Assembly: GCA_934464775.1 (NCBI GenBank)
Contig: CAKSKG010000006.1
Location: forward strand, 5,545-69,544
DNA length: 64,000 nucleotides
Direction of reading: 5' to 3'
Source of the DNA: an uncultured Oscillospiraceae bacterium
GTDB lineage: Bacteria > Bacillota > Clostridia > Oscillospirales > Ruminococcaceae
The notes below the pieces were generated by a model, which ran no database searches, was not told the origin of the DNA, and saw only the letters and a list, made by a program, of their open reading frames with translations. Position 1 is the stretch's first letter. Each line of letters opens with the position of its first letter. The position numbers and the translations under genes are program-made. Positions 1-26,087 of this stretch are shown here, piece after piece.

Positions 1-206
1 AATCGTGAGCCTATCGCCTCTCGAAAATCCTTTTCGATATCCTTTCGGATAATAAACACGATCTTGTCAAAGCCTGCCGCAAGAGCATCATAGACCGAAT
101 ACTCGGTCAGTATCTGTCCGCAGGGACCAACCTGCGCCAGCTGCTTCATTCCGCCCTTAAAGCGTGTGCCAAGTCCTGCCGCCATTACTGCCAGTGTTGT
201 TTTCAT
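1..206 (-). CDS. NTP-transferase (sugar-phosphate nucleotidyltransferase) family protein; only the N-terminal 68 codons are in the window
   Basis: Minus-strand ATG at 204..206. Hand translation MKTTLAVMAAGLGTRFKGGMKQLAQVGPCGQILTEYSVYDALAAGFDKIVFIIRKDIEKDF carries the A-x-G-x-G-T-R nucleotide-binding loop. It is absent from the ORF track because it runs off the window edge. Confidence 0.55.
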   Translation of the reverse strand, partial: MKTTLAVMAAGLGTRFKGGMKQLAQVGPCGQILTEYSVYDALAAGFDKIVFIIRKDIEKDFREAIGSR

Positions 207-221
207 TTTTTATCAATCCGT

Positions 222-1391
222 TCAAATAATTATTTCCGAAGCAAATTCCGTTCCGCTTACGGAAGATGTATCAAGTCCCAACATTTTTCCCACAGTCGCT
301 CCGATATCCGCAAAAGTCGGTCTTGTGCCGATATTCACGCTCTTTACCGAGCTTCCGTATGCCAGAAACGGGATATATTCACGGGTATGATCCGTTCCGT
401 GAGCCGTCGGGTCGCAGCCGTGATCCGCAGTTATCATCACAACATCTCCGCTGCCCAGCTTATCCATAAGCTGTCCGAGGCGGACATCAAATTCATTCAG
501 CGCATTTGTATAGCCCTCGGGATCACGCCTGTGACCGTAGAGCATATCAAAATCCACCAGATTCACAAAGCAAAGTCCATGAAAATCCCTGTCCGCATAA
601 GCGAGAGTTTTATCCATTCCGTCGGAATTATTCACGGTGCGCACAAATTCCGTAACGCCCTTTCCCGCAAAAATATCATTTATCTTGCCCACCGCAAGAA
701 CATCAAGTCCTGCCGACGAAACCACATCAAGAATAGTATCCTTCGGCGGAACCAGCGAAAAATCATGGCGCCGTGAGGTCCTCTCAAATGGATATTCCCC
801 CTTGAACGGACGTGCGATAACTCTTCCGACACCGTATTTTCCCGTAAGCAGCTTTCTTGCGGCTTCACAGTATTCATACAGCTTTTCAACTGGAACAACG
901 TCCTCGTGAGCGGCTATCTGGAACACGCTGTCAGCGGAGGTGTAAACGATGAGCGCACCTGTTTCCATATGCTCCCTGCCGTAATCCGCAATGACCTTTG
1001 TGCCAGAATAGGGCTTGTTGCACAGCACCTTTCTGCCTGTGGCTTTTTCAAAGGCGGAGATTACCTCGTCGGGAAATCCGTCGGGGAAAACGGGCATTGG
1101 CTCTTCGGAGATAATGCCGGATATCTCCCAGTGACCCGTCGTTGTGTCCTTTCCCTTGGACGCTTCACGGAGCTTTCCGTATGCTCCCACAGTAACATCG
1201 GCAGGAGTGCCGATGCCTATTCCGTCGATGTTATACAGTCCCAGCCTTGCCATATTGGGAACATTCAGCTTTCCCGTTTCATAGCAGGAGCGGAACGTAT
1301 TTGTCCCCTCGTCGCCGTAATCGGCGGCGTCAGGCTCCGCACCGACTCCTGCGCTGTCCATAACGATAAGAAAAACTCTTTTGATATCCAT
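222..1391 (-). CDS. deoB: phosphopentomutase
   Basis: 389-aa ORF. N-terminus MDSAGVGAEPDAADYGDEGTNT and C-terminal TADHGCDPT...GTDHTREYIPF are typical of DeoB (alkaline-phosphatase superfamily). Confidence 0.9.
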   Translation of the reverse strand: MDIKRVFLIVMDSAGVGAEPDAADYGDEGTNTFRSCYETGKLNVPNMARLGLYNIDGIGIGTPADVTVGAYGKLREASKGKDTTTGHWEISGIISEEPMPVFPDGFPDEVISAFEKATGRKVLCNKPYSGTKVIADYGREHMETGALIVYTSADSVFQIAAHEDVVPVEKLYEYCEAARKLLTGKYGVGRVIARPFKGEYPFERTSRRHDFSLVPPKDTILDVVSSAGLDVLAVGKINDIFAGKGVTEFVRTVNNSDGMDKTLAYADRDFHGLCFVNLVDFDMLYGHRRDPEGYTNALNEFDVRLGQLMDKLGSGDVVMITADHGCDPTAHGTDHTREYIPFLAYGSSVKSVNIGTRPTFADIGATVGKMLGLDTSSVSGTEFASEIII

Positions 1392-1395
1392 ATTA

Positions 1396-1896
1396 TCAGT
1401 CCTTAACGTATACCTTTACTATTTCCGAAATAAATTCCGTGTGCATGGGATCGCCGTTGATGTTCTCGGCTTTAAGAGCCTCGTCGGTGAAAAATTCGGG
1501 CTTCATCTCCTGAACATAAAGCTTGCGGCACACCAGCACCAGTTCAGCCTGTTCGATAGCCGCAGTTCCGTCAACGAACACGGGAGTAAGTCCCGTTTCC
1601 TTTGACTTGTCACAGTCACGTCCCGAATTTCTGCCGCAGAACATCAGCGCACTGCGGTATTCCTCTGGAAGAAAGCTCGCGGTGAAATACTCGTTCTTTT
1701 CAAGGAAGCTGTATGTATGGCGGCTGGGTCTTACAACAGCCTGAAGGCAGTTTTTGCCCCACATAACGCCCATAAAGCCCCATGAAGCGGTCATCGTGTT
1801 CCAGCTGCTCTCATCGCCAGCGGTTATAAGGAACCACTGCTTGCCGATCTTTTCAAAGGGATTGAAGTTCAGTTCTTTTATGTTTATCTCTTTCAT
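1396..1896 (-). CDS. flavin reductase-like (FMN-binding split-barrel) domain protein
   Basis: 166-aa ORF. FLITAGD...NTMTASWGFMGVMWGK pattern typical of the flavin-reductase-like family. Lies 4 nt upstream of deoB on the same strand. Confidence 0.7.
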   Translation of the reverse strand: MKEINIKELNFNPFEKIGKQWFLITAGDESSWNTMTASWGFMGVMWGKNCLQAVVRPSRHTYSFLEKNEYFTASFLPEEYRSALMFCGRNSGRDCDKSKETGLTPVFVDGTAAIEQAELVLVCRKLYVQEMKPEFFTDEALKAENINGDPMHTEFISEIVKVYVKD

Positions 1897-2125
1897 GGTC
1901 GATTCCTCCGTACATGAATATAATTATCTTTTCTCACATTATAACATATCTATTCGGAAAAATAAACAGTTATTTCAAAAAAACTCAAAATATTTTATTC
2001 ACATACAATTCGATAATATTGTCAACAAACGCACAATTGCAAATATGCCGAATATGATATTTTGGTATATTTGACGAAAAGCAGAAGTGATATAAAGAAT
2101 ATTTTCCGAATTTGGTAATAAATTA

Positions 2126-2154
2126 TTGACAAACCGACATGATTATGTTATGAT
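2126..2154 (+). promoter_or_regulatory. sigma-A-type promoter for the 2219..3685 gene
   Basis: TTGACA (2126..2131), 17-nt spacer, TATGAT (2149..2154). Confidence 0.45.
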
Positions 2155-2218
2155 ATGTTTTATGTTAGGCAACAGAGTTTGCCTTTTTATCCAAACAAAC
2201 AGCAAAAGGGGTTTTTTT

Positions 2219-3685
2219 ATGACCGATAATTTTGATATGGACGATATCAGCCTTGACGGCATATCGCTTGATGATCTTACTTCGCTGCCCGATCTTCCCG
2301 AATCCGCAAACGACTGGAAGCGCAAGCATCACGAACAGGACGATCAGGATTCAATAGATATCTCGGGACTTGACATGGACTCTCTGAACACGGAGCTTCC
2401 CGAAGCGGAGCGTGCGCCTATACGTGAGCCTGCATTTCTCAGCAGCAAGGCGGCTGCGGAAGAGGCTGCCGCAAAGGCAAAAGAGGCAAAATCCGAGCCT
2501 AAGCCTGCTCCCGCTCCCATTCCCGCAAAACCGTCGATCCCGTCGGGACTTCCCGCAGGATACGTTCCTCCCGTTGGCGGAATAAACGTACAGAAAAAGT
2601 CCGTTTCCGTTCCCAATGCGGCAGGCAGAATAAATGTTGAGAAAAAGCCTGCCTCCGTACAGTCTGCGGCAGGACAGATAGATCTTGAAAAGAAACCTGC
2701 ACCTACCGCTTCAAGCGGCGGAATAAGCATCGAGAAGAAGCCTGTTTCCGTTCCCAATGCAGGTGCGGCAGGCGGAATATCCATTCAGAAAAAGAGCGTG
2801 ACAACTCCCGCTTCAAGCGGCGGATATGTTCCTCCCACGGTAAACCCCATAGGCTCCGCACCTCAGCCCGTTAAAACAAATGCGGCTCCCGTGACAACAG
2901 TTAAAAAGTCCGAGGTTGAAAATCTCGCAAATGCTATACCGAGACAGACCCCTGCCGAAAGCAAGGACATCTCCGATGTAAAGCCTCCCGTTATCTCGGG
3001 AATGGACGATATCCCCATGCCGAAGCTTTCAGATATGGACGGAACGGAAGCAAAGCCTAAGGCTGCGCCTGTAAATGCCGCTCCGAAGCCCTCAAATTCA
3101 TATGCGGCAAACAAGCCGCAGGCAGCTGCACCTGCTCCCGCACAGCACCTTTCGGCGGCTGAACAGCGCAGACAGGATAAGCTCAACGCAGGCTTTGACG
3201 ATCAGCCTATCAGAGTTTCCCAGCTCAACCATCAGGCTATGGTGGACGCCCAGATGCAGGAATGGGAAAATCAGCGCCGCAAGGACTATGAGGACGGCAG
3301 AACTATCGTAATGATAATCGCTATCATTTACGGCATACTCGGTCTCTGCAATTTCCTCGGCGACATAAGCGTAAGACAGGGAATTTACCTTGCAATTGAC
3401 GTAATAATCGCACTCCAGCTTTTCAAGGGCAATTACAAGGTAAGAGTATGGTACATCGTTTTCGCCATTCTCGGAGCTATCGGAAACGGTCTTGCGATCA
3501 TGTCACTCCTTGGCATAAGTTCTTATGTCAACCAGCAAGATGAAACACTGCTTGCCGAAAGCGGACTTACACCGTACATCATTCTTGCAGTGGTTATCGG
3601 AATGATCAGCACAATTTACAACATCGTGACCTCCGTGCTTCTCATGTGCAACAAAAAGGTCAGAGTTTATTTTGAGCATACATAA
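2219..3685 (+). CDS. hypothetical membrane protein: acidic N-terminus, Pro/Ala-rich linker with five ~16-aa repeats, C-terminal multi-TM domain
   Basis: ATG at 2219 is preceded by AAAAGGGG; the track start at 2126 is a TTG inside the promoter. Repeats are GGINVQKKSVSVPNAA / GRINVEKKPASVQSAA / GQIDLEKKPAPTASSG / GISIEKKPVSVPNAG / GISIQKKSVTTPASSG. The last ~120 aa form about four hydrophobic helices. Confidence 0.6.
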   Translation: MTDNFDMDDISLDGISLDDLTSLPDLPESANDWKRKHHEQDDQDSIDISGLDMDSLNTELPEAERAPIREPAFLSSKAAAEEAAAKAKEAKSEPKPAPAPIPAKPSIPSGLPAGYVPPVGGINVQKKSVSVPNAAGRINVEKKPASVQSAAGQIDLEKKPAPTASSGGISIEKKPVSVPNAGAAGGISIQKKSVTTPASSGGYVPPTVNPIGSAPQPVKTNAAPVTTVKKSEVENLANAIPRQTPAESKDISDVKPPVISGMDDIPMPKLSDMDGTEAKPKAAPVNAAPKPSNSYAANKPQAAAPAPAQHLSAAEQRRQDKLNAGFDDQPIRVSQLNHQAMVDAQMQEWENQRRKDYEDGRTIVMIIAIIYGILGLCNFLGDISVRQGIYLAIDVIIALQLFKGNYKVRVWYIVFAILGAIGNGLAIMSLLGISSYVNQQDETLLAESGLTPYIILAVVIGMISTIYNIVTSVLLMCNKKVRVYFEHT

Positions 3686-3705
3686 GCCTGCATATTAACA
3701 AAAAC

Positions 3706-3742
3706 AAAACCGTTCTCCGCAGCATTTCGGAGAACGGTTTTC
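3706..3742. terminator. bidirectional intrinsic terminator
   Basis: CCGTTCTCCG (3710..3719) pairs with CGGAGAACGG (3728..3737). An A-run lies upstream and a T-run downstream, between convergent genes. Confidence 0.8.
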
Positions 3743-3746
3743 TGTA

Positions 3747-4412
3747 TTATAAAGGCTTTTTCACGGCAATAAGATACTTTATCTTCTTGCCCTCTTCGCT
3801 GAACATTTTCTCATGCTCGGTAACGATATTATCCTCAAGATTTTCCGCATGAAGATCACGGGTGATGTACTTTATCTCAAAGCCCGTTTCCTCAAAATAC
3901 GGTATGGATTCCTCGAAAAGCTGATCGTCGTCCGTCTTGAAGCGGATCTCTCCGCCGTCTTTCAGGAATATCCTGTACTGCTCCAGCTGACGTGTATGGG
4001 TCAGTCTGCGCTTCTGATGCTTTCCTCTGGGCCATGGATTGCAGAAATTGATATATATTCTGTCAACGGTATCCTCGGCGGAAAATGCGTTGGATATCAT
4101 TGATATATTGTCCGACACAAGGCGGATATTCTCGGGCTTTCTTCCTGCCTCGGCAAAAAGCTTTTCAATGGTGCGTCTGCCGACTGCAAGCATCTCGCTC
4201 TTGATGTCAACGGCTATCCAGTTAACATCGGGGTAACGGAGCGCCGCCTGCGCAACGAACACGCCCTTGCCGCAGCCAAGCTCCACATACAGCGGCTTGG
4301 AATTATCATCAAATACCGTGTGCCACTTTCCCTTCATGGCGTCCGCTCTTTCAATATAATACGGACACTGCGCCAGTTCGGGACGTGCCCATGGTTTTCT
4401 TCTCATTCTCAT
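3747..4412 (-). CDS. trmB: tRNA (guanine-N7)-methyltransferase
   Basis: 221 aa. VELGCGKGVF SAM-binding motif and ...NFCNPWPRGKHQKRRL typical of TrmB. Confidence 0.85.
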   Translation of the reverse strand: MRMRRKPWARPELAQCPYYIERADAMKGKWHTVFDDNSKPLYVELGCGKGVFVAQAALRYPDVNWIAVDIKSEMLAVGRRTIEKLFAEAGRKPENIRLVSDNISMISNAFSAEDTVDRIYINFCNPWPRGKHQKRRLTHTRQLEQYRIFLKDGGEIRFKTDDDQLFEESIPYFEETGFEIKYITRDLHAENLEDNIVTEHEKMFSEEGKKIKYLIAVKKPL

Positions 4413-4513
4413 TTTTTATATCCATTCCTTTCAGGTCATTTCTTGCATAGAGAACATTATAGCATAGATTTATATATTTGGCAAAATAATTTTATAAAAT
4501 TTTCGTAAACCTG

Positions 4514-4542
4514 TTGATTTGAATAAAAATATGTGATATAAT
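4514..4542 (+). promoter_or_regulatory. sigma-A-type promoter for pyrE
   Basis: TTGATT (4514..4519), 17-nt spacer, TATAAT (4537..4542). Confidence 0.5.
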
Positions 4543-4611
4543 TAAAATATATTATTTAATATGCTAAGACAGTCGGCAATACGTCTGTCATTAAAACTGG
4601 AGGTCCATGCG

Positions 4612-5268
4612 ATGAGCTACAAAAACGAATTTATCAAATTTATGGTTGAAAGCGGAGTTCTCACTTTCGGCGACTTCACTCTGAAGAGCGGCAGAAAGGC
4701 TCCTTATTTCGTAAATACGGGAAATTATATCACAGGCGCACAGCTTTCCCGTCTGGGCGGCTTCTATGCCGACTGCATCAAGGAAAACAATATCCCCGTT
4801 GAAACTCTCTTCGGTCCCGCTTACAAGGGCATTCCCCTTGCAGTTTCCGCTGCCGCTGCACTGTACAGCAAATACGGCATCGACGTAAACTACTGCTTCG
4901 ACCGCAAGGAGGTCAAGGACCACGGCGAGGGCGGAATGTTCGTAGGCAAGAAGCTTGCCGACAAGGAAAAGGTAGTTATCATTGAGGACGTTATGACCTC
5001 CGGCAAGGCTCTCAGAGAGGTTTATCCCAAGCTGAAATCCGCAGCAGATGTTGATATCACAGGCATGGTCATCACGGTTGACCGTATGGAAAAGGCTCTT
5101 GACAGCGATCTTTCCGCAGTTCAGGCAGCTTACAAGGAATTCGGCGTAAAGGTATATTCTATCGTTACTATCAACGATATCATCGAAGCTATCAGAAACG
5201 ATGTTGTTCCCGGCAAGGAATATCTTGACAAGATGATCGAATACAGAAAGACATACGGCGTTGAATAA
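4612..5268 (+). CDS. pyrE: orotate phosphoribosyltransferase
   Basis: ATG at 4612 follows GGAGG (4599..4603). MSYKNEFIKFMVESGVLTFGDFTLKSGRKAPYFVN and the PRPP motif VVIIEDVMTSG. Confidence 0.9.
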   Translation: MSYKNEFIKFMVESGVLTFGDFTLKSGRKAPYFVNTGNYITGAQLSRLGGFYADCIKENNIPVETLFGPAYKGIPLAVSAAAALYSKYGIDVNYCFDRKEVKDHGEGGMFVGKKLADKEKVVIIEDVMTSGKALREVYPKLKSAADVDITGMVITVDRMEKALDSDLSAVQAAYKEFGVKVYSIVTINDIIEAIRNDVVPGKEYLDKMIEYRKTYGVE

Positions 5269-5309
5269 TTTATTTTCAAGGGTTAATTTTTATTAAGGTG
5301 GTATATACA

Positions 5310-6851
5310 ATGAGCGTTAGATTTGACCTTACCGCTGTTGCACCCGAGCTGCTTGATGCGGTAATCAACATGGACAACTCCCCTGCATACGAAGCTTTTA
5401 AGGAAGAGATCGAGAGCATTCTCAAGGAATTCAATGAGTCCGCTCATTTCGGTTCAAGCCTTACTATCGACGAAAAGGCACTTACCGACAATTCCGTTGA
5501 AACAATGAAGAATATGCACCATGCATTTCTTCTCTGGACTATCCGTGACGAGCTGAAAAACGGCGGCGATGCCGAGACAGGCTACAAGGCTTATGTCAAG
5601 CTGTTCTTCAAGGCAAACTGCGACAAGATAGCAGCCCTCAACGGCGGCAGCATGACTGTTGCAGCCTCCGAGGCGGCTTCTCTTATCAAGGCATTTCTTG
5701 CCGAGATCGGCAAGGACGCTGAGCTGTACAAATCCGTCAAGGAATTTTTCAAGGGGTATATCTACGGTTACAGCTTCAACTATCTCACCGAGCAGGTGAT
5801 CATGGAAAAATATGCGGAATTTCTTGTATGCCTTGGCATGATGACAGGAAAGATCGCCGCTTCCATTTCCGCACAGCAGAAGATCATGCCAAAAATGGCT
5901 ATGCTGCTGGGCAATGACCGCTTCAAGTATATCAGCGGATTTATCCCTCTCGATATCATGCTGGATATCATATATGACCGCTTCTGCTTCCCCAATCTTT
6001 CCGATGAGGAAACAGAAAAGATCCACGGCATAATCAGAAAATATATCCTCGAACATTTTGAGATGCAGAAGGACGACGAGGCAACAACGCTCATTTCCAC
6101 ACAGGTCACAGCCTCGCTCATGACAGACATGAACGGAAACTATGTCAATGTTCCCGCATATTCCGAGCAGACCTTTGCAGGCTGCTTCGGCGGCGTCCGC
6201 AGCTTCCTCGGCGCCGATAAGGAGGACTTCGGAGAGTTTGACGCCGCAACTATCGCAGGCATCATCAACGGAAAATGCTCCGCAGACTTTGTTCAGTATT
6301 TCACAACAGAGCGTGAGCCGAATCTTGAAGTTGCGCTGGGCGGCGACGATATCGGATACAAGTATCCTCTGGTTTTCAGAGATGCTTCCGATTACTGGTA
6401 CTCCCCTATCTATCAGCATCTGATAAACGATCTGCTTGACAACAAGATCTATTCGTTCATTGATACAAACAATCTTCCCCTTGACATCTTCCCCTTTGCG
6501 GACGAGGTACTCAAAACGAATGCTATCCGTACATATACAAACAGCTCCGCAACGGGCTATTCTATCAGAGCGGACAAGAAGCAGGTGCTTATCCGTCTTA
6601 TCGACATCAACTCCGCACCCTCTCTTTCCGACTCCGAAAAGAGGATGCTTATGCTTGAACAGATTCTCTATATCCTTTCGGGCAACTGCGATGCAGACAA
6701 GTACAACAAGCTTGTTATCGACAACGTATTCAACGGCGAGCTTTACGATGAGTATGTTATGTACCGCATAAACAAGATACTCGAACAGGGCAGCGGCAGT
6801 GTTGATGCAAAGAAGTCACTGCTCCGGCAGGTAATTGCTATCAAGCTCTGA
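5310..6851 (+). CDS. hypothetical protein (513 aa, soluble, apparently helical), no family recognised
   Basis: Long uninterrupted ORF. ATG at 5310 lies 8 nt after AAGGTGG. Followed by a terminator. No TM segments, signal peptide or catalytic motifs that I recognise. Confidence 0.75.
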   Translation: MSVRFDLTAVAPELLDAVINMDNSPAYEAFKEEIESILKEFNESAHFGSSLTIDEKALTDNSVETMKNMHHAFLLWTIRDELKNGGDAETGYKAYVKLFFKANCDKIAALNGGSMTVAASEAASLIKAFLAEIGKDAELYKSVKEFFKGYIYGYSFNYLTEQVIMEKYAEFLVCLGMMTGKIAASISAQQKIMPKMAMLLGNDRFKYISGFIPLDIMLDIIYDRFCFPNLSDEETEKIHGIIRKYILEHFEMQKDDEATTLISTQVTASLMTDMNGNYVNVPAYSEQTFAGCFGGVRSFLGADKEDFGEFDAATIAGIINGKCSADFVQYFTTEREPNLEVALGGDDIGYKYPLVFRDASDYWYSPIYQHLINDLLDNKIYSFIDTNNLPLDIFPFADEVLKTNAIRTYTNSSATGYSIRADKKQVLIRLIDINSAPSLSDSEKRMLMLEQILYILSGNCDADKYNKLVIDNVFNGELYDEYVMYRINKILEQGSGSVDAKKSLLRQVIAIKL

Positions 6852-6874
6852 TAATTATTCCGTTACATATACTA

Positions 6875-6905
6875 AAAAAGGACTTGCTTTGAGCAGGTCC
6901 TTTTT
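6875..6905 (+). terminator. intrinsic terminator of the 5310..6851 gene
   Basis: GGACTTGC (6880..6887) pairs with GCAGGTCC (6893..6900), followed by T5. Confidence 0.7.
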
Positions 6906-6930
6906 CATATACATATACAATAACGCAAAC

Positions 6931-6959
6931 ACAAAAGCAGGCACCGAAAAGCACCTGCT
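6931..6959 (-). terminator. intrinsic terminator of the cheY/cheX-like operon
   Basis: On the minus strand AGCAGGTGC pairs with GTGCCTGCT (9 bp including 2 G-U pairs valid only on this strand), then a T-run. Confidence 0.65.
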
Positions 6960-6982
6960 TTTATTTTCAAATGATAATATTA

Positions 6983-7861
6983 TCAGCCGCCGATAACAAA
7001 TGTAACAACTCCGAACGGGAATGCCAGAGGGATCTTGTATGCGCCGTTCAGACCGTCTCTTGTTTCATTGTGAACGACTACCTGAGGCTCAAGAGTAAGC
7101 TCTGTGTTTCTGTCGTTGGAAACATTAACGGCAAAAAGTCCGTTGTGGAGATTCAGGAACTCGCCTGCGGAAGCGTCTGCCATTTCATCAACAGCCGTAA
7201 GCTCCTCGCCTGCATATCTTGATGCAAAGCCGATATAAGCCTTGTCCTCCGCATCAACGGCAATAGTGTGGGCAAACACACCGCTGATCTTCTGAATGCT
7301 TGCATTGCTGAACTTGTATGTATCAACACGCTCGCAGTTGAGAGGTGTGAAATCATCGCCTATAAAGCGGACGATATTCTTGAAGAGCAGGTCGATATAC
7401 TCTACCATAAGCTCGTCACTGTCATTTTCAAAGTTATAGAATGACTTGATAACATTGTGTATCTTTTCGTTGTCATTCTCCTTGAAATCGCTGTCGGAGA
7501 TGCTGTTTTCAGCCTTGTATGCATTGAGGGCAGCCTCAAAATCCGAGTTGGACATATAGCCTCTGTCAACGAGAGCCTGTCCCAGAAGCAGATGAGAACC
7601 AGACTGTGCGGAGAAAAGCTCATCTACCTGCGCATTTGTCATAAAGCCCATTGCAACGGCGATCTCACCGATGCGCTTATCCATTCTCTGCTGCTCTGCG
7701 TGTACCTTTTCAACCTGCTCGGCTGTCATATAGCCTGCATTGATAGCCAGCACACCAAGCTTTACACGGGTCGTTTTAAGTGCGGAAAGAGCCTCTGCAA
7801 GCTGTGCAGGCTCAACAAGACGGTTGTTCAGCAGATAGTTGCCGAAAAATTGTGTAAACAT
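6983..7861 (-). CDS. fusion protein: N-terminal tandem MshEN/T2SSE_N-like (c-di-GMP-binding type) motifs plus a C-terminal CheX-like phosphatase domain
   Basis: Residues 34-57 (KLGVLAINAGYMTAEQVEKVHAEQ) and 63-86 (RIGEIAVAMGFMTNAQVDELFSAQ) fit the 24-residue MshEN motif RLGxx(L/V/I)(L/V/I)xxG(L/V/I)(L/V/I)xxxxLxxxLxxQ and are separated by exactly 5 residues. The C-terminus has DASAGEFLNLHNG...LTLEPQVVV...IPLAFPFGVVTFVI, resembling CheX D-x-x-G-E-x-x-N ... P-x-V-V. Confidence 0.6.
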   Translation of the reverse strand: MFTQFFGNYLLNNRLVEPAQLAEALSALKTTRVKLGVLAINAGYMTAEQVEKVHAEQQRMDKRIGEIAVAMGFMTNAQVDELFSAQSGSHLLLGQALVDRGYMSNSDFEAALNAYKAENSISDSDFKENDNEKIHNVIKSFYNFENDSDELMVEYIDLLFKNIVRFIGDDFTPLNCERVDTYKFSNASIQKISGVFAHTIAVDAEDKAYIGFASRYAGEELTAVDEMADASAGEFLNLHNGLFAVNVSNDRNTELTLEPQVVVHNETRDGLNGAYKIPLAFPFGVVTFVIGG

Positions 7862-7884
7862 AACAGAAACCTCATTTCAAAAAA

Positions 7885-8256
7885 TTATTCGGCAAGCTTT
7901 TCGATAATTGCCTTTACCTGTGCTTCTTCCAGAGGCTTCTGGAGGAAATCATAAGCGCCTGCATTGATAGCCTCTTTAAGATTTGCCTGAGTACCTACCG
8001 ATGAAGCCATAACCACCTTTGCCTTGGGATTTACGGCAAGGATCTCCTTGAGAGCGTCAACGCCGTTGATCTCGGGCATAACGATATCCATGAATGTAAC
8101 ATCGGGCAGATGATTCTTATACATACTTACGGCAGCCTTGCCGTCGCCGGCTTCAACAACGGTACCGACACCGAGGGACTTGATAAAAGTCACAAGCTTC
8201 TTTCTCGCAAGAAGCGAATCGTCACAAATAAGAACAGTCATTTTTTCCAGACTCAT
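7885..8256 (-). CDS. single-domain response regulator (CheY-like receiver)
   Basis: 123 aa. DD pair (ICDDS), phospho-acceptor context VTFMDIVMP, ...MASSVG...K. AAGGAG RBS 8 nt upstream of the ATG. Confidence 0.85.
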   Translation of the reverse strand: MSLEKMTVLICDDSLLARKKLVTFIKSLGVGTVVEAGDGKAAVSMYKNHLPDVTFMDIVMPEINGVDALKEILAVNPKAKVVMASSVGTQANLKEAINAGAYDFLQKPLEEAQVKAIIEKLAE

Positions 8257-8333
8257 TTTAAATACTCCTTAATGCTTAATTTATACGGGCAGCACCGCTG
8301 AAACAACGCCTGTGCCTCCGAATCTATGATACA

Positions 8334-8362
8334 ATTATACCACGTTTATCTTTGCAATTCAA
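8334..8362 (-). promoter_or_regulatory. sigma-A-type promoter for the cheY-like operon
   Basis: Minus strand reads TTGAAT (8357..8362), 17-nt spacer, TATAAT (8334..8339). It lies between the RNA terminator and cheY. Confidence 0.5.
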
Positions 8363-8415
8363 CTAAAATTTGTGAACATTGTCAATATTAACATATTTAT
8401 TCACTTATATATAGC

Positions 8416-8670
8416 AAAAAGACCATATGCAAAACGCATATGGTTCATCAACAAAAATAAAAGATTCCACCCAGCCGCCATGTGGCGAATAAAACCCGCA
8501 CAAAGCAGGTGGGCAACAGCCCGACAGTTTCACGCTCCCTGCGTCCGTGGGTCCCATCATCTAAATGGGCGGGAGGTCTGCAATCTGCTGACGGAGCCTG
8601 AATCCCTAATTAAAAGTGTTGGATTATAAAACCACACTTTATCGGTCAAGGCAGAATCTTTAACTTTCTG
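8416..8670 (-). ncRNA. stand-alone structured non-coding RNA of about 255 nt, family unrecognised
   Basis: Own near-consensus promoter immediately upstream. The closing helix is about 18 bp (8643..8661 with 8460..8477) and includes three G-U pairs valid only on the minus strand. Internal hairpins at 8613..8640, 8553..8569, 8532..8544 and 8511..8522. It ends in a 10-bp hairpin plus T5 (8416..8445). No credible ORF. Confidence 0.6.
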
Positions 8671-8676
8671 ATATAT

Positions 8677-8705
8677 ATTATAACACCGGGAAAGCCTAAA
8701 ATCAA
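8677..8705 (-). promoter_or_regulatory. near-consensus sigma-A promoter driving the 8416..8670 RNA
   Basis: Minus strand reads TTGATT (8700..8705), 17-nt spacer, TATAAT (8677..8682). Confidence 0.6.
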
Positions 8706-8795
8706 TAGTAATTGCTGTGAAATTATTTTGAGTAATTTTGTATAATATGTATATTGATTTTTGGTCTGATTTATGCATAAATACCGTATTTTCAG

Positions 8796-8837
8796 TATAA
8801 AACAGGGGACCGAAACGGTAATTCCGTTCCGATCCCC
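8796..8837 (-). terminator. intrinsic terminator of the 8876..11158 gene
   Basis: A 14-bp stem (8805..8818 with 8824..8837) pairs fully only on the minus strand (2 G-U pairs), followed by TGTTTTAT. Confidence 0.75.
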
Positions 8838-8875
8838 CGTATAGCTTTTATGCTATGCAGTCAGCTTTGAGCCGA

Positions 8876-11158
8876 TCAATAGCGCACGCTTACATTGCCG
8901 GAGATTCCGCCGCCTGCTGCGAGTGCTACGTTATAATTGCTGTAATATCTGCCTGTAACAGTGCTGTAATAAGGATATGACTGGCTGCCTGTTACGCTTG
9001 TGTAGCTTGAAATGCCTGTGCTTACGCTTACAACAGAGCCTGTACCGCCTGCTGCCGCAGATGCTTCAGACATTGATGAATAATACATATTTGTCTTGAA
9101 GTCATAGTAGGGATAAGAAGAGCTGTATGTTGAGCTTCTTGAAGAGGAAGCATTTCCGCCTGCATTTACAGATGCAGCGTAGGAAGCATAGTAAAGACCT
9201 GTTGTTGCATTGTAATAAGGTGTGGACTGTGAATACGATGAGCTTACGTAGCTTACGTTGTTCGAGTTATTGCCCGAAGCGGAAAGTGCATCAGACTGTG
9301 TCTTATAGAACTTGCCTGTTGAAATGCTGTAATAAGGATAGGAAGCTGTATAAGTGCTGGAGTATGATGTTGATGTACCGCCGCCCTTTACGTTATCAGC
9401 AACGAACTTGATGGAGTAGTACAGACCTGTTGCGGAGCTGTAATAAGGTGTTGTTGAAGAGTAAGAACCGCTTACAGTCGAAACGTAGATAGAGGACTTG
9501 GAATCTGCGATAGCGGCTTCAACTGTGGTATAATACTTGCCTGTTTCAAGGCTGTAATAAGGATATGCGCTTGAATAGGAAGTTGAAGAGCTGCCGTTTG
9601 TCTTGTAGTAATCAGTGTAGTCCTTTACCAGAGCCGTAACATAATCGGAAGCAGCAAGTGCATCACTGTATGTCTTATAATACTTGCCTGTCTTTGCACT
9701 GTAATAAGGATATGTGGAGCTGCCGGAGTTGGAATACTTGCCGGAATAGAGGTCTGTATAGTCGACAACCTTGGATTCCATATTTCCGGAAGCGGCAAGT
9801 GCATCATTCTTTGTCTTGTAGTATCTGCCTGTTATCATGCTGTAATAAGGATATGTAGCGCTGCCTGTTGTGCTGTAATCATTAGATGTATAGTAGCTGG
9901 AGTAATCCCTTACATATGCGGATCTGTTGTTGGAAGCCGCAAGAGCGTCATTGTATGTCTTGTAGTAAAGACCTGTGTATGAGCTGAAATAAGGATATGT
10001 GGAGCTGCCTGTTGTGCTGTAAACATTGCCGTCGCTCTGATCTCCGTAAAGAACATACTTATCATTGCCGAAGGAAGCTGCAAGAGCGGAGCTGCGGTCG
10101 GGATAATACTTCTTTGTGTATGTGCTGTAATAGGGATAAGATGAGCTGAAGTAGTTGCTTGTGGAGAACTTGCCCTGATATACATAAGCCGACTGATTGT
10201 TGGAAGCCTTAACGGCAGCAGTATATGTGCTGTAATAATAGCCTGTATATGTGCTGTAATAGGGGAACTTCACGGAATCATAAGAGCTGCTGTATGTAGC
10301 ATTTTCGCCGTAGGAAACGTAGTTAGGCTCATTCCTTGAAGCCTTGAGGGCATCGGAATATGTTCTGTAATACTTTCCTGTGTAGCTGCTGTAATAAGGA
10401 TAATCGGAGCTGTAGCTGTTGGAATAGCTTACGGAAGAGGAAGCATCACCCAGTGAAACATACTTTGAATTGCCGTTGGAAGCTGCTACCGCATCATCAT
10501 AATTCTTATAATACTTGCCTGTGTAGCTGCTGTAGAAAGGATACTGCTCGCTGTAGGAATTGCTGTAAGCAATGCTTGTTGAGCCGCCGCCTACCTTAAC
10601 GGAAATATTCTTGTAAATGTTTGTATACTTGGAGAAGCTTACCTTAACGGTTGTCTTGCCTGCCTTCTTGCCTGTGATGAGAAGGTCGATATCGTTGCCG
10701 TCAAAGGGAGTATCCCACTTGAGTCCGACGATGTTCTTTACGGAAGCATTTGCTCTTACGGCGTGTGTTCCCTTGGCTGTTACGGTAACTGCCTCTGTCT
10801 CGCCGACATCAATGGAAACGTTGTTGTCGCTTACAGTGATCTTTCCGGGAGATACCGTCACCTTGCAGCGGAGAGTCTCGCCGTCAACATCTGCATAGAT
10901 GTAGCAGGTGCCTGCGCTTACGCCTCTTACCTTACCGCTCTGTGTAACTCTTGCGATGCTTGTATCGGAAGATGACCACTCGATATCATCATAATCGCCG
11001 TACACATCAAGAGTATACGCATAGCCCTTTGTAAGTGTAAAGCTCTTTTTGCTAAGCTCGTTGTCATAAGCCGAAGCCGAGAAGCCAAGGCTGCTTACTG
11101 CCAGTGCCATTGAAAGGGCGGCAGCTGCGATCTTCTTAACTGAGTTGTTCTTTTTCAT
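8876..11158 (-). CDS. secreted protein: signal peptide, two bacterial Ig-like (Big_2-type) domains, 13 Tyr/Ser-rich tandem repeats
   Basis: MKKNNSVKKIAAAALSMALAVSSLGFSASA signal peptide. SSSDTSIARVTQSGKVRGVSAGTCYIYA resembles Big_2. Then 13 units of about 43 aa with core [YF]P[YF][YF]SxxTG[KRL]YYxTxxDAxAAS. No LPXTG, SLH or other anchor seen. Confidence 0.8.
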   Translation of the reverse strand: MKKNNSVKKIAAAALSMALAVSSLGFSASAYDNELSKKSFTLTKGYAYTLDVYGDYDDIEWSSSDTSIARVTQSGKVRGVSAGTCYIYADVDGETLRCKVTVSPGKITVSDNNVSIDVGETEAVTVTAKGTHAVRANASVKNIVGLKWDTPFDGNDIDLLITGKKAGKTTVKVSFSKYTNIYKNISVKVGGGSTSIAYSNSYSEQYPFYSSYTGKYYKNYDDAVAASNGNSKYVSLGDASSSVSYSNSYSSDYPYYSSYTGKYYRTYSDALKASRNEPNYVSYGENATYSSSYDSVKFPYYSTYTGYYYSTYTAAVKASNNQSAYVYQGKFSTSNYFSSSYPYYSTYTKKYYPDRSSALAASFGNDKYVLYGDQSDGNVYSTTGSSTYPYFSSYTGLYYKTYNDALAASNNRSAYVRDYSSYYTSNDYSTTGSATYPYYSMITGRYYKTKNDALAASGNMESKVVDYTDLYSGKYSNSGSSTYPYYSAKTGKYYKTYSDALAASDYVTALVKDYTDYYKTNGSSSTSYSSAYPYYSLETGKYYTTVEAAIADSKSSIYVSTVSGSYSSTTPYYSSATGLYYSIKFVADNVKGGGTSTSYSSTYTASYPYYSISTGKFYKTQSDALSASGNNSNNVSYVSSSYSQSTPYYNATTGLYYASYAASVNAGGNASSSRSSTYSSSYPYYDFKTNMYYSSMSEASAAAGGTGSVVSVSTGISSYTSVTGSQSYPYYSTVTGRYYSNYNVALAAGGGISGNVSVRY
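8879..10561 (-). repeat. in-frame degenerate tandem DNA repeats of about 130 bp encoding the Tyr-rich units
   Basis: The periodicity is visible in the protein. It also shows in the recurring CCNKD shadow ORFs on the opposite strand. Confidence 0.8.
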
Positions 11159-11528
11159 AATGTTCCTCCGTTCTGTCGATTTACCGACATCAATAAAAAT
11201 ATTTTTGATTTCAGAATCTCTTGTTCATGTTCTGCATTTTTCGGCGTGTTTCATACGCTTCTGCTATATAAACAATCGAAAAAGGCAAAACATTTCACTT
11301 TTTTCTGCATTTTGTATATTTGCACAAAAATATTTTTTCTTTTTATGTATTATGTCTGCTTTTTTATACGTACACCAAGCTTCAAGCTATATTATACATA
11401 TAAATTGTGACGTTTGGCTGTGCTGTATGTGACAGCAGGGTGACATATACCGCACATCGGCAAGTGTACTACATTCACTAATACAGTTATATCACACAAT
11501 TTCATCAAAGTCAATAGGTATAAAAAAA

Positions 11529-12770
11529 TTATTTTACGAGATAGCCGCCGACGGGACGGATATAGAGCTTATAGCAGCTGCCCTTTCCGAAAACGTGCTC
11601 CATGCTGCTGCGGAATTCATCAAGCTTGTCATCGGGAACGAACGCCTGAATAGTTCCCGCAAAGCCGCCGCCGTGAACTCTGCACGCTCCCCTGCCGTTC
11701 AGTACGTGCTCGGCTGTGTACAGTCCGATAACAACAGCCTGCTCCTCGGGCTTTTTAAGGGGAAATACGTTCTGGAGGAATTTATACGAGCTGTTTCCGC
11801 TGGCATTCACAAGACGGAAGAAGCCGTCGATATCATTATCTCTGAGAGCCGCAAACTCTGCGCAGGCTCTTTCGCTTTCGTCAAAGAAGTGGAGCGCACG
11901 AGCCACCGCTCTGTCTCCGCACGCCTTTCTTGCCTCGGAAATATTGTCCCAGAGCTGCTCTCTTGTAATGTCACGAAGCTCCTTTCCGCCGAAGAAAGCC
12001 GCCACCGACTTCATCTCTGCGGGAATAGCCGCATAATCGGGAGTAAGATCCGCATGGCTGCCCTTTGTATCAACGATGCAGAGAGAATAGCCGCTCTTTG
12101 AAAAATCAACGCTTACGGCGTCGATAACGGGATTTTTCACGTCCTTGAAATCTATCGTGATAAATCCGCCCACGGAGGAAGCCATCTGGTCCATAAGTCC
12201 CGAAGGCTTGCCGAAGAATACATTCTCGGAATACTGCGCTATCTGTGCGATCTTAACTGCGGAAACAGAGCCGTCATTGTAAAGATGAGAAAGGATCGTT
12301 CCCACCAGCACCTCAAATGCAGCCGAAGAGGAAAGTCCGCTGCCGCCGAGGACATTCGATGTTGAATATGCCTTGAAGCCGCCTGTCTTATAGCCGTTTT
12401 CCGCAAAGCCTGCGGCAACGCCTCTGATAAGACCCTCGGAAGTGCCGAATTCGCTTTCCTTTGCGGCAAGATCAGTGATATCCACAGGCTTTATCTCAAA
12501 GCCCTCGGAGCGTATCTCGATAACATTGTCATCGGTGGGGATAACAACGGCAACAGCGTCAAGATCAACGGCAGCCGCCAGCACACAGCCTCTGTTATGG
12601 TCGGTGTGATTGCCGCCTACCTCTGTTCTTCCGGGTGCGGAAAAAACTCTTGCGTTTTCATGTGCGCCGAAAATTTCGGCAAATTTTGCCTCCGCATCGG
12701 CATATCTCTTTTTCTGTGTTTCCACTGCGTCGGCTCCGTAGAGCATCGCAAGCTTTTCATCAAAATTCAT
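11529..12770 (-). CDS. galK: galactokinase
   Basis: FSAPGRTEVGGNHTDHN and GSGLSSSAA GHMP-kinase motifs. I prefer the ATG at 12770, with GGAGGA 7 nt upstream, over the track start at 12812. Confidence 0.9.
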   Translation of the reverse strand: MNFDEKLAMLYGADAVETQKKRYADAEAKFAEIFGAHENARVFSAPGRTEVGGNHTDHNRGCVLAAAVDLDAVAVVIPTDDNVIEIRSEGFEIKPVDITDLAAKESEFGTSEGLIRGVAAGFAENGYKTGGFKAYSTSNVLGGSGLSSSAAFEVLVGTILSHLYNDGSVSAVKIAQIAQYSENVFFGKPSGLMDQMASSVGGFITIDFKDVKNPVIDAVSVDFSKSGYSLCIVDTKGSHADLTPDYAAIPAEMKSVAAFFGGKELRDITREQLWDNISEARKACGDRAVARALHFFDESERACAEFAALRDNDIDGFFRLVNASGNSSYKFLQNVFPLKKPEEQAVVIGLYTAEHVLNGRGACRVHGGGFAGTIQAFVPDDKLDEFRSSMEHVFGKGSCYKLYIRPVGGYLVK

Positions 12771-12789
12771 TTTTATATCCTCCGTTTTT

Positions 12790-13935
12790 TCAGTCCGCAT
12801 CATAAAAGACACGGTAATTTTTTTCCGAATGGGAATATGCGCTCATCACAAGACCTATCCCCGCAAACAGTGCCAGCAGCGCCGAACCGCCCTGACTCAA
12901 AAAAGGCAGCGGCACGCCGATAACGGGCATAACACCCAGCACCATTCCTATATTCAGCACGCTGTGGACCAGTATCAGCGAAAACATTCCGATGCAGATA
13001 TATTTTCCCAGCGGATCCTTTGCAATGCGTGAATCGGCAAAGATCTTCAAACATACAAACACCAGCAGCACCATTACCGCCATACAGCCGATAAATCCGA
13101 ACGCCTGCCCGATATATGCGAACATAAAATCGTTCTGTGCCTCGGGGATAGATATGAAATCATCGGAGATGAAGCCTTTTCCGAATATCTGTCCCGAACC
13201 CAGTGCGATCTTTCCGTAATGCTGCTGATAGCCGTAGCCCAGCGGATCAAGCTCATCATCAAACAGCACCATAAAGCGCATCTTCTGATGAGTTTTCATA
13301 AATTTCGTCCAGAGCAGATAAACCGCCGCAGGCGATACTATCACCGCAGGAAGTATATACTTCCACGATATGCCTGCCGCAAACATCATGAACAGGAACA
13401 GGCAGATAAACACAAATGCCGTTCCGTCATCTCCCTGCACAAGAATAAGCCCGATAGGCACCGCCGCATGAAGTATAAGAAGAAGCACATTCAGCGGCTT
13501 GTTGATATTCTCCCCCACCTTTGCAAGGTGCATGGAAAATGTGCAGATAAACGCTATTTTCAGAAACTCGGAAGGCTGCACGGTGGCTATGCCGAGATCG
13601 AGCCACGCCCTGTCTCCCGTGGATTCAACGGTAACGCCCATTTCCGTAAAGGTCATCAGCACCAGCCCTATGCTCAGAGGAACATAGAAAAACCACAGCC
13701 TGACTATCTTGTGATAATCCACAGCCGATATTATCAGCGCCAGCAATGCTCCCGAACAAAGCGCCGCAGCCTGCATACGGTAGAGCCTGCCCGACACCTC
13801 AATGGTGGAAGCGCCGTTTGCCACAATGGAATAGAGCATCGCCACTCCCGATATCCCAAGTATGCACACAGCCGCAAACAGCGGCTTATCCAGCTTGCGG
13901 ATATACTGATATATTAATTCTGCCGCTTTTTTCAA
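12790..13935 (-). CDS. FtsW/RodA/SpoVE-family peptidoglycan glycosyltransferase
   Basis: Polytopic membrane protein with PEAQNDFMFAYIGQAFGFIG and GVPLPFLSQGGSALL. The likely start is a TTG at 13935, 5 nt after GGAGG; the track start at 13980 has no RBS. Confidence 0.85.
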   Translation of the reverse strand: MKKAAELIYQYIRKLDKPLFAAVCILGISGVAMLYSIVANGASTIEVSGRLYRMQAAALCSGALLALIISAVDYHKIVRLWFFYVPLSIGLVLMTFTEMGVTVESTGDRAWLDLGIATVQPSEFLKIAFICTFSMHLAKVGENINKPLNVLLLILHAAVPIGLILVQGDDGTAFVFICLFLFMMFAAGISWKYILPAVIVSPAAVYLLWTKFMKTHQKMRFMVLFDDELDPLGYGYQQHYGKIALGSGQIFGKGFISDDFISIPEAQNDFMFAYIGQAFGFIGCMAVMVLLVFVCLKIFADSRIAKDPLGKYICIGMFSLILVHSVLNIGMVLGVMPVIGVPLPFLSQGGSALLALFAGIGLVMSAYSHSEKNYRVFYDAD

Positions 13936-14116
13936 AATTACCTCCGCAAAACATCTGATAGTAAATTGATACAAAAACATTATACACTATCTTAAAAAAA
14001 TTTTCAATAGAATTTATAATAAAAGGTAGCCAAATCAAAAAAAACGTGGTATAATGTATGATATTATATATCTGTATGTTCAATACGGAATATACGGACA
14101 GGGAGGATCATTATAA

Positions 14117-15793
14117 ATGTTATCTGATATTGAAATCGCACAGCAGGCTAAAATGCTGAAGATCTCCGAGGTTGCCGCCAAGGTCGGCATAAGCGAGGAC
14201 GATCTGGAGCCTTACGGTCACTATAAGGCAAAGCTCAGTGAAAAGCTTTTTGCTGAAACAAAGGACAAGCCCGACGGAAAGCTTATCCTTGTTACGGCTA
14301 TCAACCCCACACCCGCAGGCGAGGGAAAGACAACTATCTCCGTAGGTCTTGCCGAAGCTATGGCAAAGATCGGAAAGAACGCTGTTCTTGCTCTCCGTGA
14401 GCCTTCTCTCGGACCCGTATTCGGAATAAAGGGCGGTGCGGCAGGCGGCGGCTACGCTCAGGTAGTTCCCATGGAGGGCATCAATCTCCACTTCACAGGC
14501 GATATGCACGCCATCACATCTGCAAACAATCTCCTCTGCGCACTGCTTGACAACCATATGCAGCAGGGCAATCTGCTCCGCATCGACCAGCGCAGAATTA
14601 TGATCGACCGCTGCATGGATATGAACGACCGTGCCCTCAGAAACATCGTTATCGGCATGGGCGGCAAGGTAAACGGAATCCCCCGTCAGGACAGCTTCCG
14701 CATCACAGTTGCCAGCGAAGTTATGGCAATCCTCTGCCTTGCTTCCGATCTTGCAGACCTTAAAAAGCGTCTCGGCAGCATTCTCGTTGCATACAGCTAT
14801 GACGGCGAGCCTGTATATGCCCGTGACCTTCAGGCAGAGGGCGCAATGACAGCTCTCCTGAAAGACGCTCTCAAGCCCAATCTTATCCAGACTCTTGAAA
14901 ACACTCCCGCACTCATGCACGGCGGACCTTTCGCAAACATTGCACACGGCTGCAACTCAGTCCGTGCCACAAAGCTTGCTCTCAAGCTTGGCGACTACTG
15001 CATCACAGAGGCAGGCTTCGGCGCAGATCTCGGCGCAGAGAAATTCTGCGACATCAAGTGCCGCTTTGCAGGCTTAAAGCCCTCCTGCGCAGTTATCGTT
15101 GCAACTATCCGTGCGCTGAAATACAATGGCGGCGTTCCCAAGACAGAGCTTACGGCTGAAAATGTTGAGGCTCTCAAAGCAGGTATCGTGAACCTGAAAA
15201 CACATATCGAGAATATGCACAAGTTCGGACTTCCCGTTGTTGTTGCTATCAACCGCTTCCACACCGACACAGATGCCGAGATCGAAGTTATCAAGAGCTT
15301 CTGCAAGGAAATGGGCGTTGAAGTATCTCTCGCAGAGATTTTCGCAAAGGGCGGCGAAGGCGGAATCGACCTTGCCGAAAAGGTATGCTCTGCTATTGAA
15401 AAGCACGACGGCGCAGCCGATTTCCGTCAGCTCTATGATACAGAGCTGTCGATCAAGGAAAAGCTCAATGTTATTGCGACCGAGATCTACCGTGCCGACG
15501 GCGTAAACTACACAAAGCAGGCTGAAAAGGCTATCGCCGAGATCGAAAAGCTCGGCTTCGGAAACACTCCCGTCTGCGTTGCAAAAACACAGTACAGCCT
15601 TTCCGACGATGCAGCAAAGCTCGGCAAGCCCGAAAACTTCCGCATTACGGTTCGTGATGTAAAGCTTTCCGCAGGCGCAGGCTTTGTTGTTGCCCTCACA
15701 GGCGATATCATGATAATGCCCGGTCTTCCCAAGGTACCCGCAGCAAACAAGATCGACTGCGACAACAACGGAAACATCACAGGTCTTTTCTGA
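14117..15793 (+). CDS. fhs: formate--tetrahydrofolate ligase
   Basis: 558 aa. [13 protein letters not shown]..., [10 protein letters not shown]-loop; typical FTHFS over the full length. Confidence 0.95.
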
Positions 15794-15815
15794 TAAATAA
15801 AGCTATAATAAATTT

Positions 15816-15848
15816 GAAGCCGTATCATTCCGATGCGGCTTCTTTTTT
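15816..15848 (+). terminator. intrinsic terminator of fhs
   Basis: An 11-bp stem (15816..15826 with 15832..15842) followed by T6. Confidence 0.8.
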
Positions 15849-15858
15849 ATTATTAACC

Positions 15859-15892
15859 AAAAAGCTCCGACAGCCTATACACTGTCGGAGCT
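15859..15892 (-). terminator. intrinsic terminator of pcrA
   Basis: AGCTCCGACA pairs with TGTCGGAGCT (10 bp), followed by a T-run on the minus strand. Confidence 0.75.
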
Positions 15893-15913
15893 TTCGCTAT
15901 ATCAAATTATAAA

Positions 15914-18304: not shown

Positions 18305-18529
18305 TTTCCATGCTCCCTAACTATATCTTATCATATACTTTGTATTATAGCACATTTCTCAAATGATAAAAAGACCGTGAGGACACATTTTACATTTTTA
18401 TAATATTTTTAATATTTTATATGATTTTTTCTTTTTCGGGAGCATATTTACATTAAAATTGCACAAGCTATTGCTATTGATTTTTTTCGTAAAATGTGGT
18501 ATGCATTTCCGACAGAAGAGGAGATTTTT

Positions 18530-19861: not shown

Positions 19862-20021
19862 CATAAGTCTTGAAACAATGTCAAAAAATCATCAACATTC
19901 CGCAGGATTTTTATAAAAATCGGTATAAAAATGTAAAGCATTTCCGCCGCAACTATTGACAAAAAATGAAAAAGTGTTATAATTAAATTAATAATGTAAT
20001 TATTTTTCGGAGGTTTTTTGT

Positions 20022-21095: not shown

Positions 21096-21112
21096 AACCT
21101 CAAAATCAAAAC

Positions 21113-21160
21113 AAAAAAATCCGCATGGTCTGTGAAAAATTCAGACCATGCGGATTTTTA
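21113..21160. terminator. bidirectional intrinsic terminator
   Basis: A 14-bp perfect stem (ATCCGCATGGTCTG with CAGACCATGCGGAT) is flanked by an A-run and a T-run, between convergent genes. Confidence 0.85.
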
Positions 21161-21174
21161 TTATCTTATAAGAT

Positions 21175-22671: not shown

Positions 22672-22976
22672 TTTTTAACCTCCAACTCAAAAGTCTTTAT
22701 TGATTATATCACATTTCTCTCCAAAAATCAAGGCGGTTTACGTGAATTATCCATAACTCACGCAAAATTTCAATTTTATTGTTTTGTAAAATGTGACAAA
22801 TTTTTCTTTTGATGTTAAACATTATATACATATTTTTTGCCGCAATCTCTTGACGGAATCAATTTTATGTGATATAATATTACAGAACAAAAATTCTGAT
22901 AGATATAACGGAGAACATACACGGATCATCATATTACGGACTTTTCGGCAAATATTTTTATGGAAAAGGGTCAGTT

Positions 22977-24281: not shown

Positions 24282-24282
24282 C

Positions 24283-24611: not shown

Positions 24612-24620
24612 GCCACAGTA

Positions 24621-24652: not shown

Positions 24653-24670
24653 CGTAAATATTCAAAAAAA

Positions 24671-26068: not shown

Positions 26069-26087
26069 TTTAACGACCGCCTTTCAA

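Follow-up and report, generated by a model that had tools for sequence, protein, structure and literature searches.

A conserved stand-alone RNA gene of an Oscillospiraceae bacterium is very probably ssrS, the gene for 6S RNA

We analysed a structured RNA encoded on the minus strand of a 64,000-nucleotide stretch of bacterial DNA (the window), and find that it is very probably the 6S RNA gene (ssrS) of an Oscillospiraceae bacterium (Clostridia), the product of which would sequester sigma-A RNA polymerase. The gene is real, conserved, stand-alone and non-coding, and its identity is already known rather than that of a novel family; 6S RNA is among the best-known bacterial RNAs. The initial annotation had described a structured RNA gene that codes for no protein and stands alone, having both a promoter and a terminator of its own, which is borne out here, and had called its family unrecognised, seeing no match to 6S, which is refuted: the Rfam family RF00013 matches the RNA over its full length above the gathering score, and does so for most homologues too. 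The label of the locus should be ssrS (6S RNA) and not orphan RNA, a correction that matters little beyond annotation. What is unusual about the gene is only mildly so, namely lineage-specific elaborations of the structure and a score near the Rfam threshold.

The 6S family match and the homologues

When the window was scanned with cmscan against Rfam 15, RF00013 (6S/SsrS) matched 8660..8460 (-), a core of 201 nt aligned to model positions 1-187 of 187, and scored 47.5 bits where 46.4 is the gathering score (E = 2.1e-6 over the entire window and 1.6e-8 for the 500-nt stretch 8300..8800). The initial annotation had itself taken a confident Rfam match to mean that the RNA is known rather than novel, so its claim of novelty fails by its own measure. 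The margin over the gathering score is only 1.1 bits, the internal helix in the model alignment includes non-canonical pairs, and 29 nt of the apical region are accommodated as a terminal-loop insertion; for E. coli ssrS, taken as a positive control, the same tool gives 139.8 bits. A permissive scan of 8300..8800 found no other Rfam family near threshold, the match to STnc390 (18.8 bits against a gathering score of 50, E = 0.19) being noise. Over the full 64 kb (1..64000) the 6S RNA is the sole Rfam match at gathering level, and no tRNA or tmRNA gene was found within the window.

To collect homologues, species-representative genomes were scanned once for a 20-base pattern taken from the 3' bubble region, and 63 loci were returned. 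About 17 of these, in Proteobacteria, Actinomycetota, archaea and others, are chance matches without blastn similarity to the RNA. Extraction with blastn and MAFFT gave 45 distinct full-length homologues at 73-91% identity (alignment A3), in which the columns within the search pattern, namely the 3' bubble hairpin stem, GCGGG and the CCC of the bubble closure, are invariant by construction. Nearly all of the 45 come from MAGs labelled Oscillospiraceae, Ruminococcus, Huintestinicola or Clostridia, and the CheX-like protein encoded near the RNA puts the organism itself in the Oscillospiraceae. Contigs with a close CheX bear the same RNA upstream of cheY-cheX, scoring 48.5, 48.6, 57.7 and 60 bits with RF00013; among the copies linked to cheY-cheX there are also a variant scoring 39.3 bits and a copy truncated at the 5' end, scoring 38.4 bits. 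In these linked loci the sequence is nearly invariant from the 5' end of the closing stem to its 3' end, and the flanks diverge.

The gathering score of RF00013 was passed by 14 of the 18 diverse homologues tested (46.8-65.2 bits), the other four lying below it. Gut and rumen Oscillospiraceae 6S RNAs being this near to the Rfam cut-off, annotation pipelines may miss some of them, and the 45-sequence alignment could act as a clade-specific seed. One further copy lies on JAMPIC010000001.1 (L069, positions 7401-7601), a 391-kb scaffold from a MAG labelled Prevotella sp., and is an Oscillospiraceae-type 6S RNA scoring 64.1 bits and 86% identical to the RNA of the window. Because such a sequence is not expected in a Bacteroidota MAG, this scaffold is probably mis-binned or chimeric.

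Gene layout and neighbouring genes

The RNA is preceded by a sigma-A type promoter at 8677..8705 (-), with the -35 element TTGATT (8705..8700), a 17-nt spacer and the -10 element TATAAT (8682..8677), which in a consensus scan matches at 10 of 12 positions and has a TG-extended -10. From these elements transcription is predicted to start near 8670..8668, and it would end at an intrinsic terminator at 8416..8445 (-), a 10-bp hairpin (8444..8422) followed by CUUUUU (CTTTTT in the DNA), for a predicted primary transcript of about 250 nt. A separate promoter, TTGAAT-17-TATAAT at 8362..8334, stands ahead of the response-regulator gene cheY (8256..7885). The initial annotation had pointed out both promoters and the terminator hairpin with its U-run, and all three hold at these positions, the upstream TG being an addition; the letters of the minus strand over 8416..8705 likewise agree with its description. 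The upstream neighbour is a gene for a 760-aa protein with a Big_2 domain, and the downstream neighbour is cheY. The Big_2-domain gene ends in a very strong terminator directly upstream of the 6S promoter (8840..8802 (-), a 17-bp stem with 10 G-C pairs), so that with this terminator on one side, and its own terminator and the cheY promoter on the other, the RNA gene is insulated on both sides.

This layout recurs among the homologues. By script, TTGAT(T/A)-17-TATA(A/C)T with an upstream TG is the top-scoring promoter site in 30 of the 45, some site with at least 9 of 12 matches is found in 43, and a hairpin plus T-run, differing in sequence, follows within ~75 nt of the 3' end of the closing stem in 41. 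In the minimum-energy fold the predicted 5' leader CAGAAA (8665..8670 (-)) can pair with a U-rich 3' trailer (~8451..8456 (-)), which lengthens the closing stem, and both leader and trailer sequences are alike in homologues. The modelled pairing suggests a precursor stem that would be trimmed to the mature 6S RNA, the ends of the RNA probably being trimmed from the primary transcript.

In the window and in the nine closest homologues the RNA shares its strand with cheY and precedes it by 150-350 nt, where a cis-acting leader or attenuator of the cheY-cheX operon would be found. However, a role of this kind is scarcely credible, in line with the view of the initial annotation that this does not look like a leader. 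The RNA has its own terminator, a separate cheY promoter lies between it and cheY, and cheY-cheX follows in only 9 of the 45 homologues, with no copy nearby in the other 36, which shows that the RNA is not a leader. Moreover, the cheY-cheX pair of GCA_022787085.1 (L005) has a 140-nt gap upstream of cheY with no 6S match, and the 6S homologue of that genome is on another contig (L011). The different neighbours of those 36 homologues imply that the 6S gene has moved often within the family. In the comparison of the window with loci L001-L008, L013, L020, L024, L039 and L053, the order 6S-cheY-cheX is seen only in the closest relatives, with CheX at least ~60% identical. The CheX-like protein of the window (6983..7861 (-)) has 292 aa, about twice the typical CheX length, with only sub-threshold Pfam matches (CheX and FumaraseC_C). 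It has more than 1,400 homologues, and among the 120 matches listed these are 276-301 aa long, mostly from Oscillospiraceae, and called 'CheX' whenever named.

Open frames do exist across the locus, namely a 73-aa ORF at 8778..8557 (-), a 51-aa ORF at 8560..8405 (-) and an 85-aa ORF at 8372..8629 (+), any of which might make this a small protein gene, but we put the chance of that at practically nil. Neither the 73-aa nor the 85-aa ORF, the two that were scanned, has a Pfam match, and the longest stop-free frame shifts strand and phase between homologues, a test that discriminates weakly in a G+C-rich core with few stop codons. Codon periodicity is the clearer test, and the substitutions show no 3-nt period (32/32/37 variable columns, p = 0.78); the indels are not multiples of three and compensatory pair changes are present. 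The earlier statement that the transcript holds no plausible ORF stands.

Covariation and the rod-shaped fold

The 255-nt stretch folds with -92.9 kcal/mol (z = -4.36), and none of 200 shuffles is as stable. Applied to the 45 sequences of A3, RNAalifold independently gives a rod made of a closing stem, an internal stem, a central bubble and an interrupted apical stem. The rod of 6S RNAs has been described as ~180-200 nt long, with a large central bubble between a closing stem and an apical stem that is interrupted (PMC8876501); the core here is 201 nt, and the RNAalifold consensus and the curated structure agree. The structure that we counted is the RNAalifold consensus with one hairpin (8569..8564 / 8558..8553) added by hand. 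On A3 it leaves 94.6% of cells paired, with 16 pairs and 123 cells changed on both sides, many of these cells stemming from few lineages, so that independent events are fewer than cells (the four sequences of the L009 group are a single event). None of 500 shuffles reaches these statistics, and controls in which the 3' partners were slid by 1-3 columns have only 37-48% of cells paired. Conserved G-U pairs fix the strand, for example U-G in 45 of 45 at alignment columns 10/215, as had been argued earlier for the closing helix. Covariation among the homologues thus supports a rod. The multi-stem junction proposed in the initial annotation keeps its long closing helix, but its four independent internal hairpins give way to a rod with a large central bubble.

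The closing stem is formed by 8643..8659 (-) (AAGAUUCUGCCUUG-A-CCG, with A8646 bulged) and 8462..8477 (-) (CGGCUGGGUGGAAUCU). It comprises 16 pairs (columns 4-20 / 206-221) with 88% of cells paired, and compensatory changes on both sides at four of them support the closing helix first proposed, over 8659..8643 / 8477..8462. Beyond it, GUGUGG at 8632..8637 (-) pairs with CCACAU at 8480..8485 (-) to form the internal stem (8637..8632 with 8485..8480), where 28 sequences have G-C and 17 have A-U at pair 31/198, 40 have U-A and 5 have C-G at pair 29/200, and 99.6% of cells are paired. The hairpin previously placed at 8613..8640 (8637..8632 with 8622..8616) is contradicted by the same columns. It is broken by G->A at column 31 in 17 sequences and by U->C at column 29 in 5, with no compensatory change, and as these very changes are fully compensated under GUGUGG/CCACAU the hairpin is rejected. 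In the single-sequence ensemble, however, it has a probability of ~0.9 and the covarying stem one of 0.03, so that single-sequence folding misleads for this 6S RNA. A comparable, unconfirmed prediction of a 5'-bubble hairpin has been noted for B. subtilis 6S-1 (PMC8876501).

The central bubble has strands of 25 nt each, unpaired across it in the RNAalifold consensus. The 5' strand, 8607..8631 (-) (UUUUAUAAUCCAACACUUUUAAUUA), includes C8618 and A8617, and its segment UUUUAUAAUCCAACAC is invariant or nearly so. Three G-C pairs close the bubble on its apical side, GGG/CCC being present in 45 of 45 homologues with the CCC fixed by the search pattern, and a GGG/CCC bubble closure has been described for B. 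subtilis 6S-2 (PMC3923129). The RNA accordingly has the conserved, G-C-closed bubble, unpaired on both strands, of a 6S RNA. The 3' strand, 8486..8510 (-), contains the hairpin ACCUGC-UUUGU-GCGGGU (8510..8494), whose stem (8510..8505 / 8499..8494), fixed by the search pattern, is part of the RNAalifold consensus and reaches pair probabilities of 0.83-0.96 in the ensemble of the single sequence. Firmicutes 6S RNAs have a hairpin in the 3' bubble strand opposite a 5' bulge (PMC8414754, PMC8876501), and the hairpin modelled here fits that element.

The apical stem is built from 8588..8606 (-), with GGG at 8606..8604, CAG at 8600..8598, C8596 and CCGUCAG at 8594..8588, and from 8511..8527 (-) (CUGUCGGGCUGUUGCCC). 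The pairings are GGG/CCC (8606..8604 / 8513..8511), CAG/CUG (8600..8598 / 8519..8517) and 8596..8588 with 8527..8520. Columns 59-61 / 169-171 of this helix are invariant, and columns 65-77 / 155-165 hold 11 pairs, six of them with changes on both sides and 94.5% of cells paired. A GGGC-UGUU-GCCC hairpin suggested earlier for this region finds no support, as it competes with the covarying CAG/CUG pairing (C-G to U-A in 4 sequences, A-U to G-U in 8).

Above the apical stem lies an elaboration at 8528..8587 (-), consisting of UGC/GCG (8582..8580 / 8535..8533), UCCC/GGGA (8574..8571 / 8539..8536) and the hairpin 8569..8564 / 8558..8553. The last of these corresponds to the CCCAU/AUGGG hairpin (8569..8553) of the initial annotation and is supported by changes from G-C to C-G or A-U and from A-U to U-A. 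The CUCCC-GGGAG pairing put forward with it is chosen by RNAalifold (8574..8571 / 8539..8536), but its bases are invariant and give no proof by covariation. The candidate CCCGC-GCGGG pseudoknot of the initial annotation draws on GCGGG, whose columns the search pattern keeps constant. The ACGC-AGGGA-GCGU hairpin, on the other hand, is unsupported. It is broken in 10 sequences, whereas its rival UGC/GCG keeps 99% of cells paired, and it is weaker than the competing UGC/GCG and UCCC/GGGA pairings. In one Ruminococcus/Oscillospiraceae clade (L009, L023, L025 and L030; A3 columns 97-130) a longer apical hairpin, CAGCCGA...UCGGCUG, with a 17-nt insertion, replaces the short one; L009, the sole member of this clade that was scanned, is below the RF00013 gathering score.

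Several hairpins within a long closing helix, as they appear in the single-sequence fold, are what the initial annotation had read as a novel RNA outside the 6S family, either an ornate non-coding RNA or an orphan of the riboswitch-like kind. That reading is extremely unlikely, given that RF00013 matches across the homologues and that covariation supports the rod and bubble and leaves three of the proposed internal hairpins either contradicted or unsupported.

Putative mechanism and comparison with known 6S-type RNAs

The mode of action of E. coli 6S RNA and of B. subtilis 6S-1 RNA is established, and is the basis of what we propose for the RNA here. Known 6S RNAs are ~200-nt rods whose bubble mimics an open promoter; they bind the housekeeping holoenzyme and are freed by transcription of a product RNA from the 5' bubble strand (PMC8876501, PMC9670815). 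By analogy, sigma-A RNA polymerase is most likely sequestered by the RNA of the window until synthesis of a product RNA sets that RNA free. Its open-bubble rod would imitate an open promoter and fill the active-site cleft of the sigma-A holoenzyme, a sequestration that would damp housekeeping transcription under nutrient scarcity. On the return of NTPs the polymerase would copy the 5' bubble strand into a short product RNA, and the hybrid of product RNA and 6S RNA would refold the latter and let the polymerase go.

The start of the product can be predicted by alignment. The E. coli start site is U44 (PMC9670815); in the model alignments U44 and A45 occupy RF00013 consensus positions 45/46, with C8618 and A8617 as their equivalents in the window, and both of these are invariant in 45 of 45 homologues. 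A product RNA starting opposite C8618 would read 5'-GUUGGAUUAUAAAA..., being G-initiated, with GG at positions 4/5 and an adjacent adenine. A conserved adenine beside the start and GG at positions 4/5 are hallmarks of product RNAs (PMC8414754), and the product RNA of B. subtilis 6S-1 is G-initiated (GUUCGGUCAAAACU; PMC3923129). The 5' strand of the closing stem also contains an octamer, UUGACCGA (8649..8642 (-)), that equals, letter for letter, the template for the product RNA of B. subtilis 6S-1 (GUUCGGUCAA, PMC3923129), and both strands of the closing stem near it are almost invariant. The match may be due to chance, or it may mark a further product-RNA site or a contact with RNA polymerase. 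A second start near U8641, with the predicted product 5'-AUCGGUCAAGGCA, would be a minor alternative to C8618 and is less likely, because base 8641 varies among homologues (U, C, G or A) and the model alignment puts the start at C8618.

For the release step, the 3'-bubble hairpin (8510..8494) is a likely refolding element because its GGGU is shared with a possible downstream helix, in which UAUAAUCC (8628..8621) would pair with GGGUUUUA (8497..8490). The two structures would exclude each other, much like the release switch of E. coli, where the 3' bubble strand forms a hairpin with the upper strand of the downstream helix (PMC9670815, PMC8876501). The UAUAAUCC/GGGUUUUA helix can pair in nearly all homologues; the homologue alignment holds no compensatory change for it and its probability in the single-sequence ensemble is zero. 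We infer such a switch step by analogy only.

Another reading is a 6S-like paralogue or derivative with a changed function, such as a second copy of the 6S-2 type or an Ms1-like binder of another form of RNA polymerase, in which case a new partner or another way of release would account for the enlarged bubble and the branched apical domain. The marginal Rfam score speaks for it, as do the 29-nt apical insertion with its invariant sequence blocks, a bubble larger than in E. coli, and the extra covarying internal stem that competes with the thermodynamically favoured 5' hairpin; the 64 kb of genome in view also leave room for a second 6S gene. We nevertheless consider a paralogue very unlikely, as each homologous locus has a single copy, the model matches over its full length with homologues scoring up to 65 bits, and the RNA is canonical in its GGG/CCC closure, in its predicted 3'-bubble hairpin and at the residues that align with the start site of E. 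coli. It is a doubtful but conceivable proposition that Oscillospiraceae 6S RNAs form a distinct structural subtype, marked by the extra internal stem, by a bubble of unusual length and by an apical domain of ~60 nt that may be branched; if so, these features could modify the binding or release of RNA polymerase or recruit another factor.

Among known systems, Ms1 of Actinobacteria binds core polymerase and is not matched by RF00013. It is likewise a 6S-like, rod-shaped RNA that binds RNA polymerase (PMC9130861), but the RNA here matches RF00013 and comes from Clostridia, and Ms1 serves as an analogy for divergent function only. E. coli ssrS belongs to the same Rfam family, its start U44/A45 aligns to C8618/A8617, and in either RNA the 3' bubble strand can form a hairpin with the upper strand of a downstream helix, a possible one in the RNA of the window. 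The scores differ (139.8 bits there, 47.5 here), as do the start base (U there, C here) and the gene context (zapA-ssrS-fau there, a Big_2-domain gene and cheY here). Furthermore, in E. coli the hairpin does not form until the product RNA has been made, whereas a stable hairpin is predicted for the free RNA here. The RNA of the window also exceeds that of E. coli in the size of its bubble (25/25 nt) and of its apical domain.

The closest likeness is to the Firmicutes 6S-1 type (B. subtilis bsrA), which shares the length of ~200 nt, a sigma-A promoter and terminator of its own, the rod, the GGG/CCC bubble closure and a pre-formed 3'-bubble hairpin, the last being predicted here. At the aligned start both have C followed by A, and the predicted product is G-initiated, GUUGG... 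here against GUUCGG... in B. subtilis. In lactic acid bacteria and B. subtilis the 6S gene adjoins rarA (PMC8414754), whereas the gene here is not beside rarA and has the Big_2-domain protein gene and cheY as neighbours. Compared with the Firmicutes 6S-1 type, the RNA of the window also has longer bubble strands (25 nt each) and, between bubble and closing stem, an additional covarying stem of 6 bp; its apical domain is enlarged, may be branched, and contains CUCCC and GGGAG blocks that do not vary.
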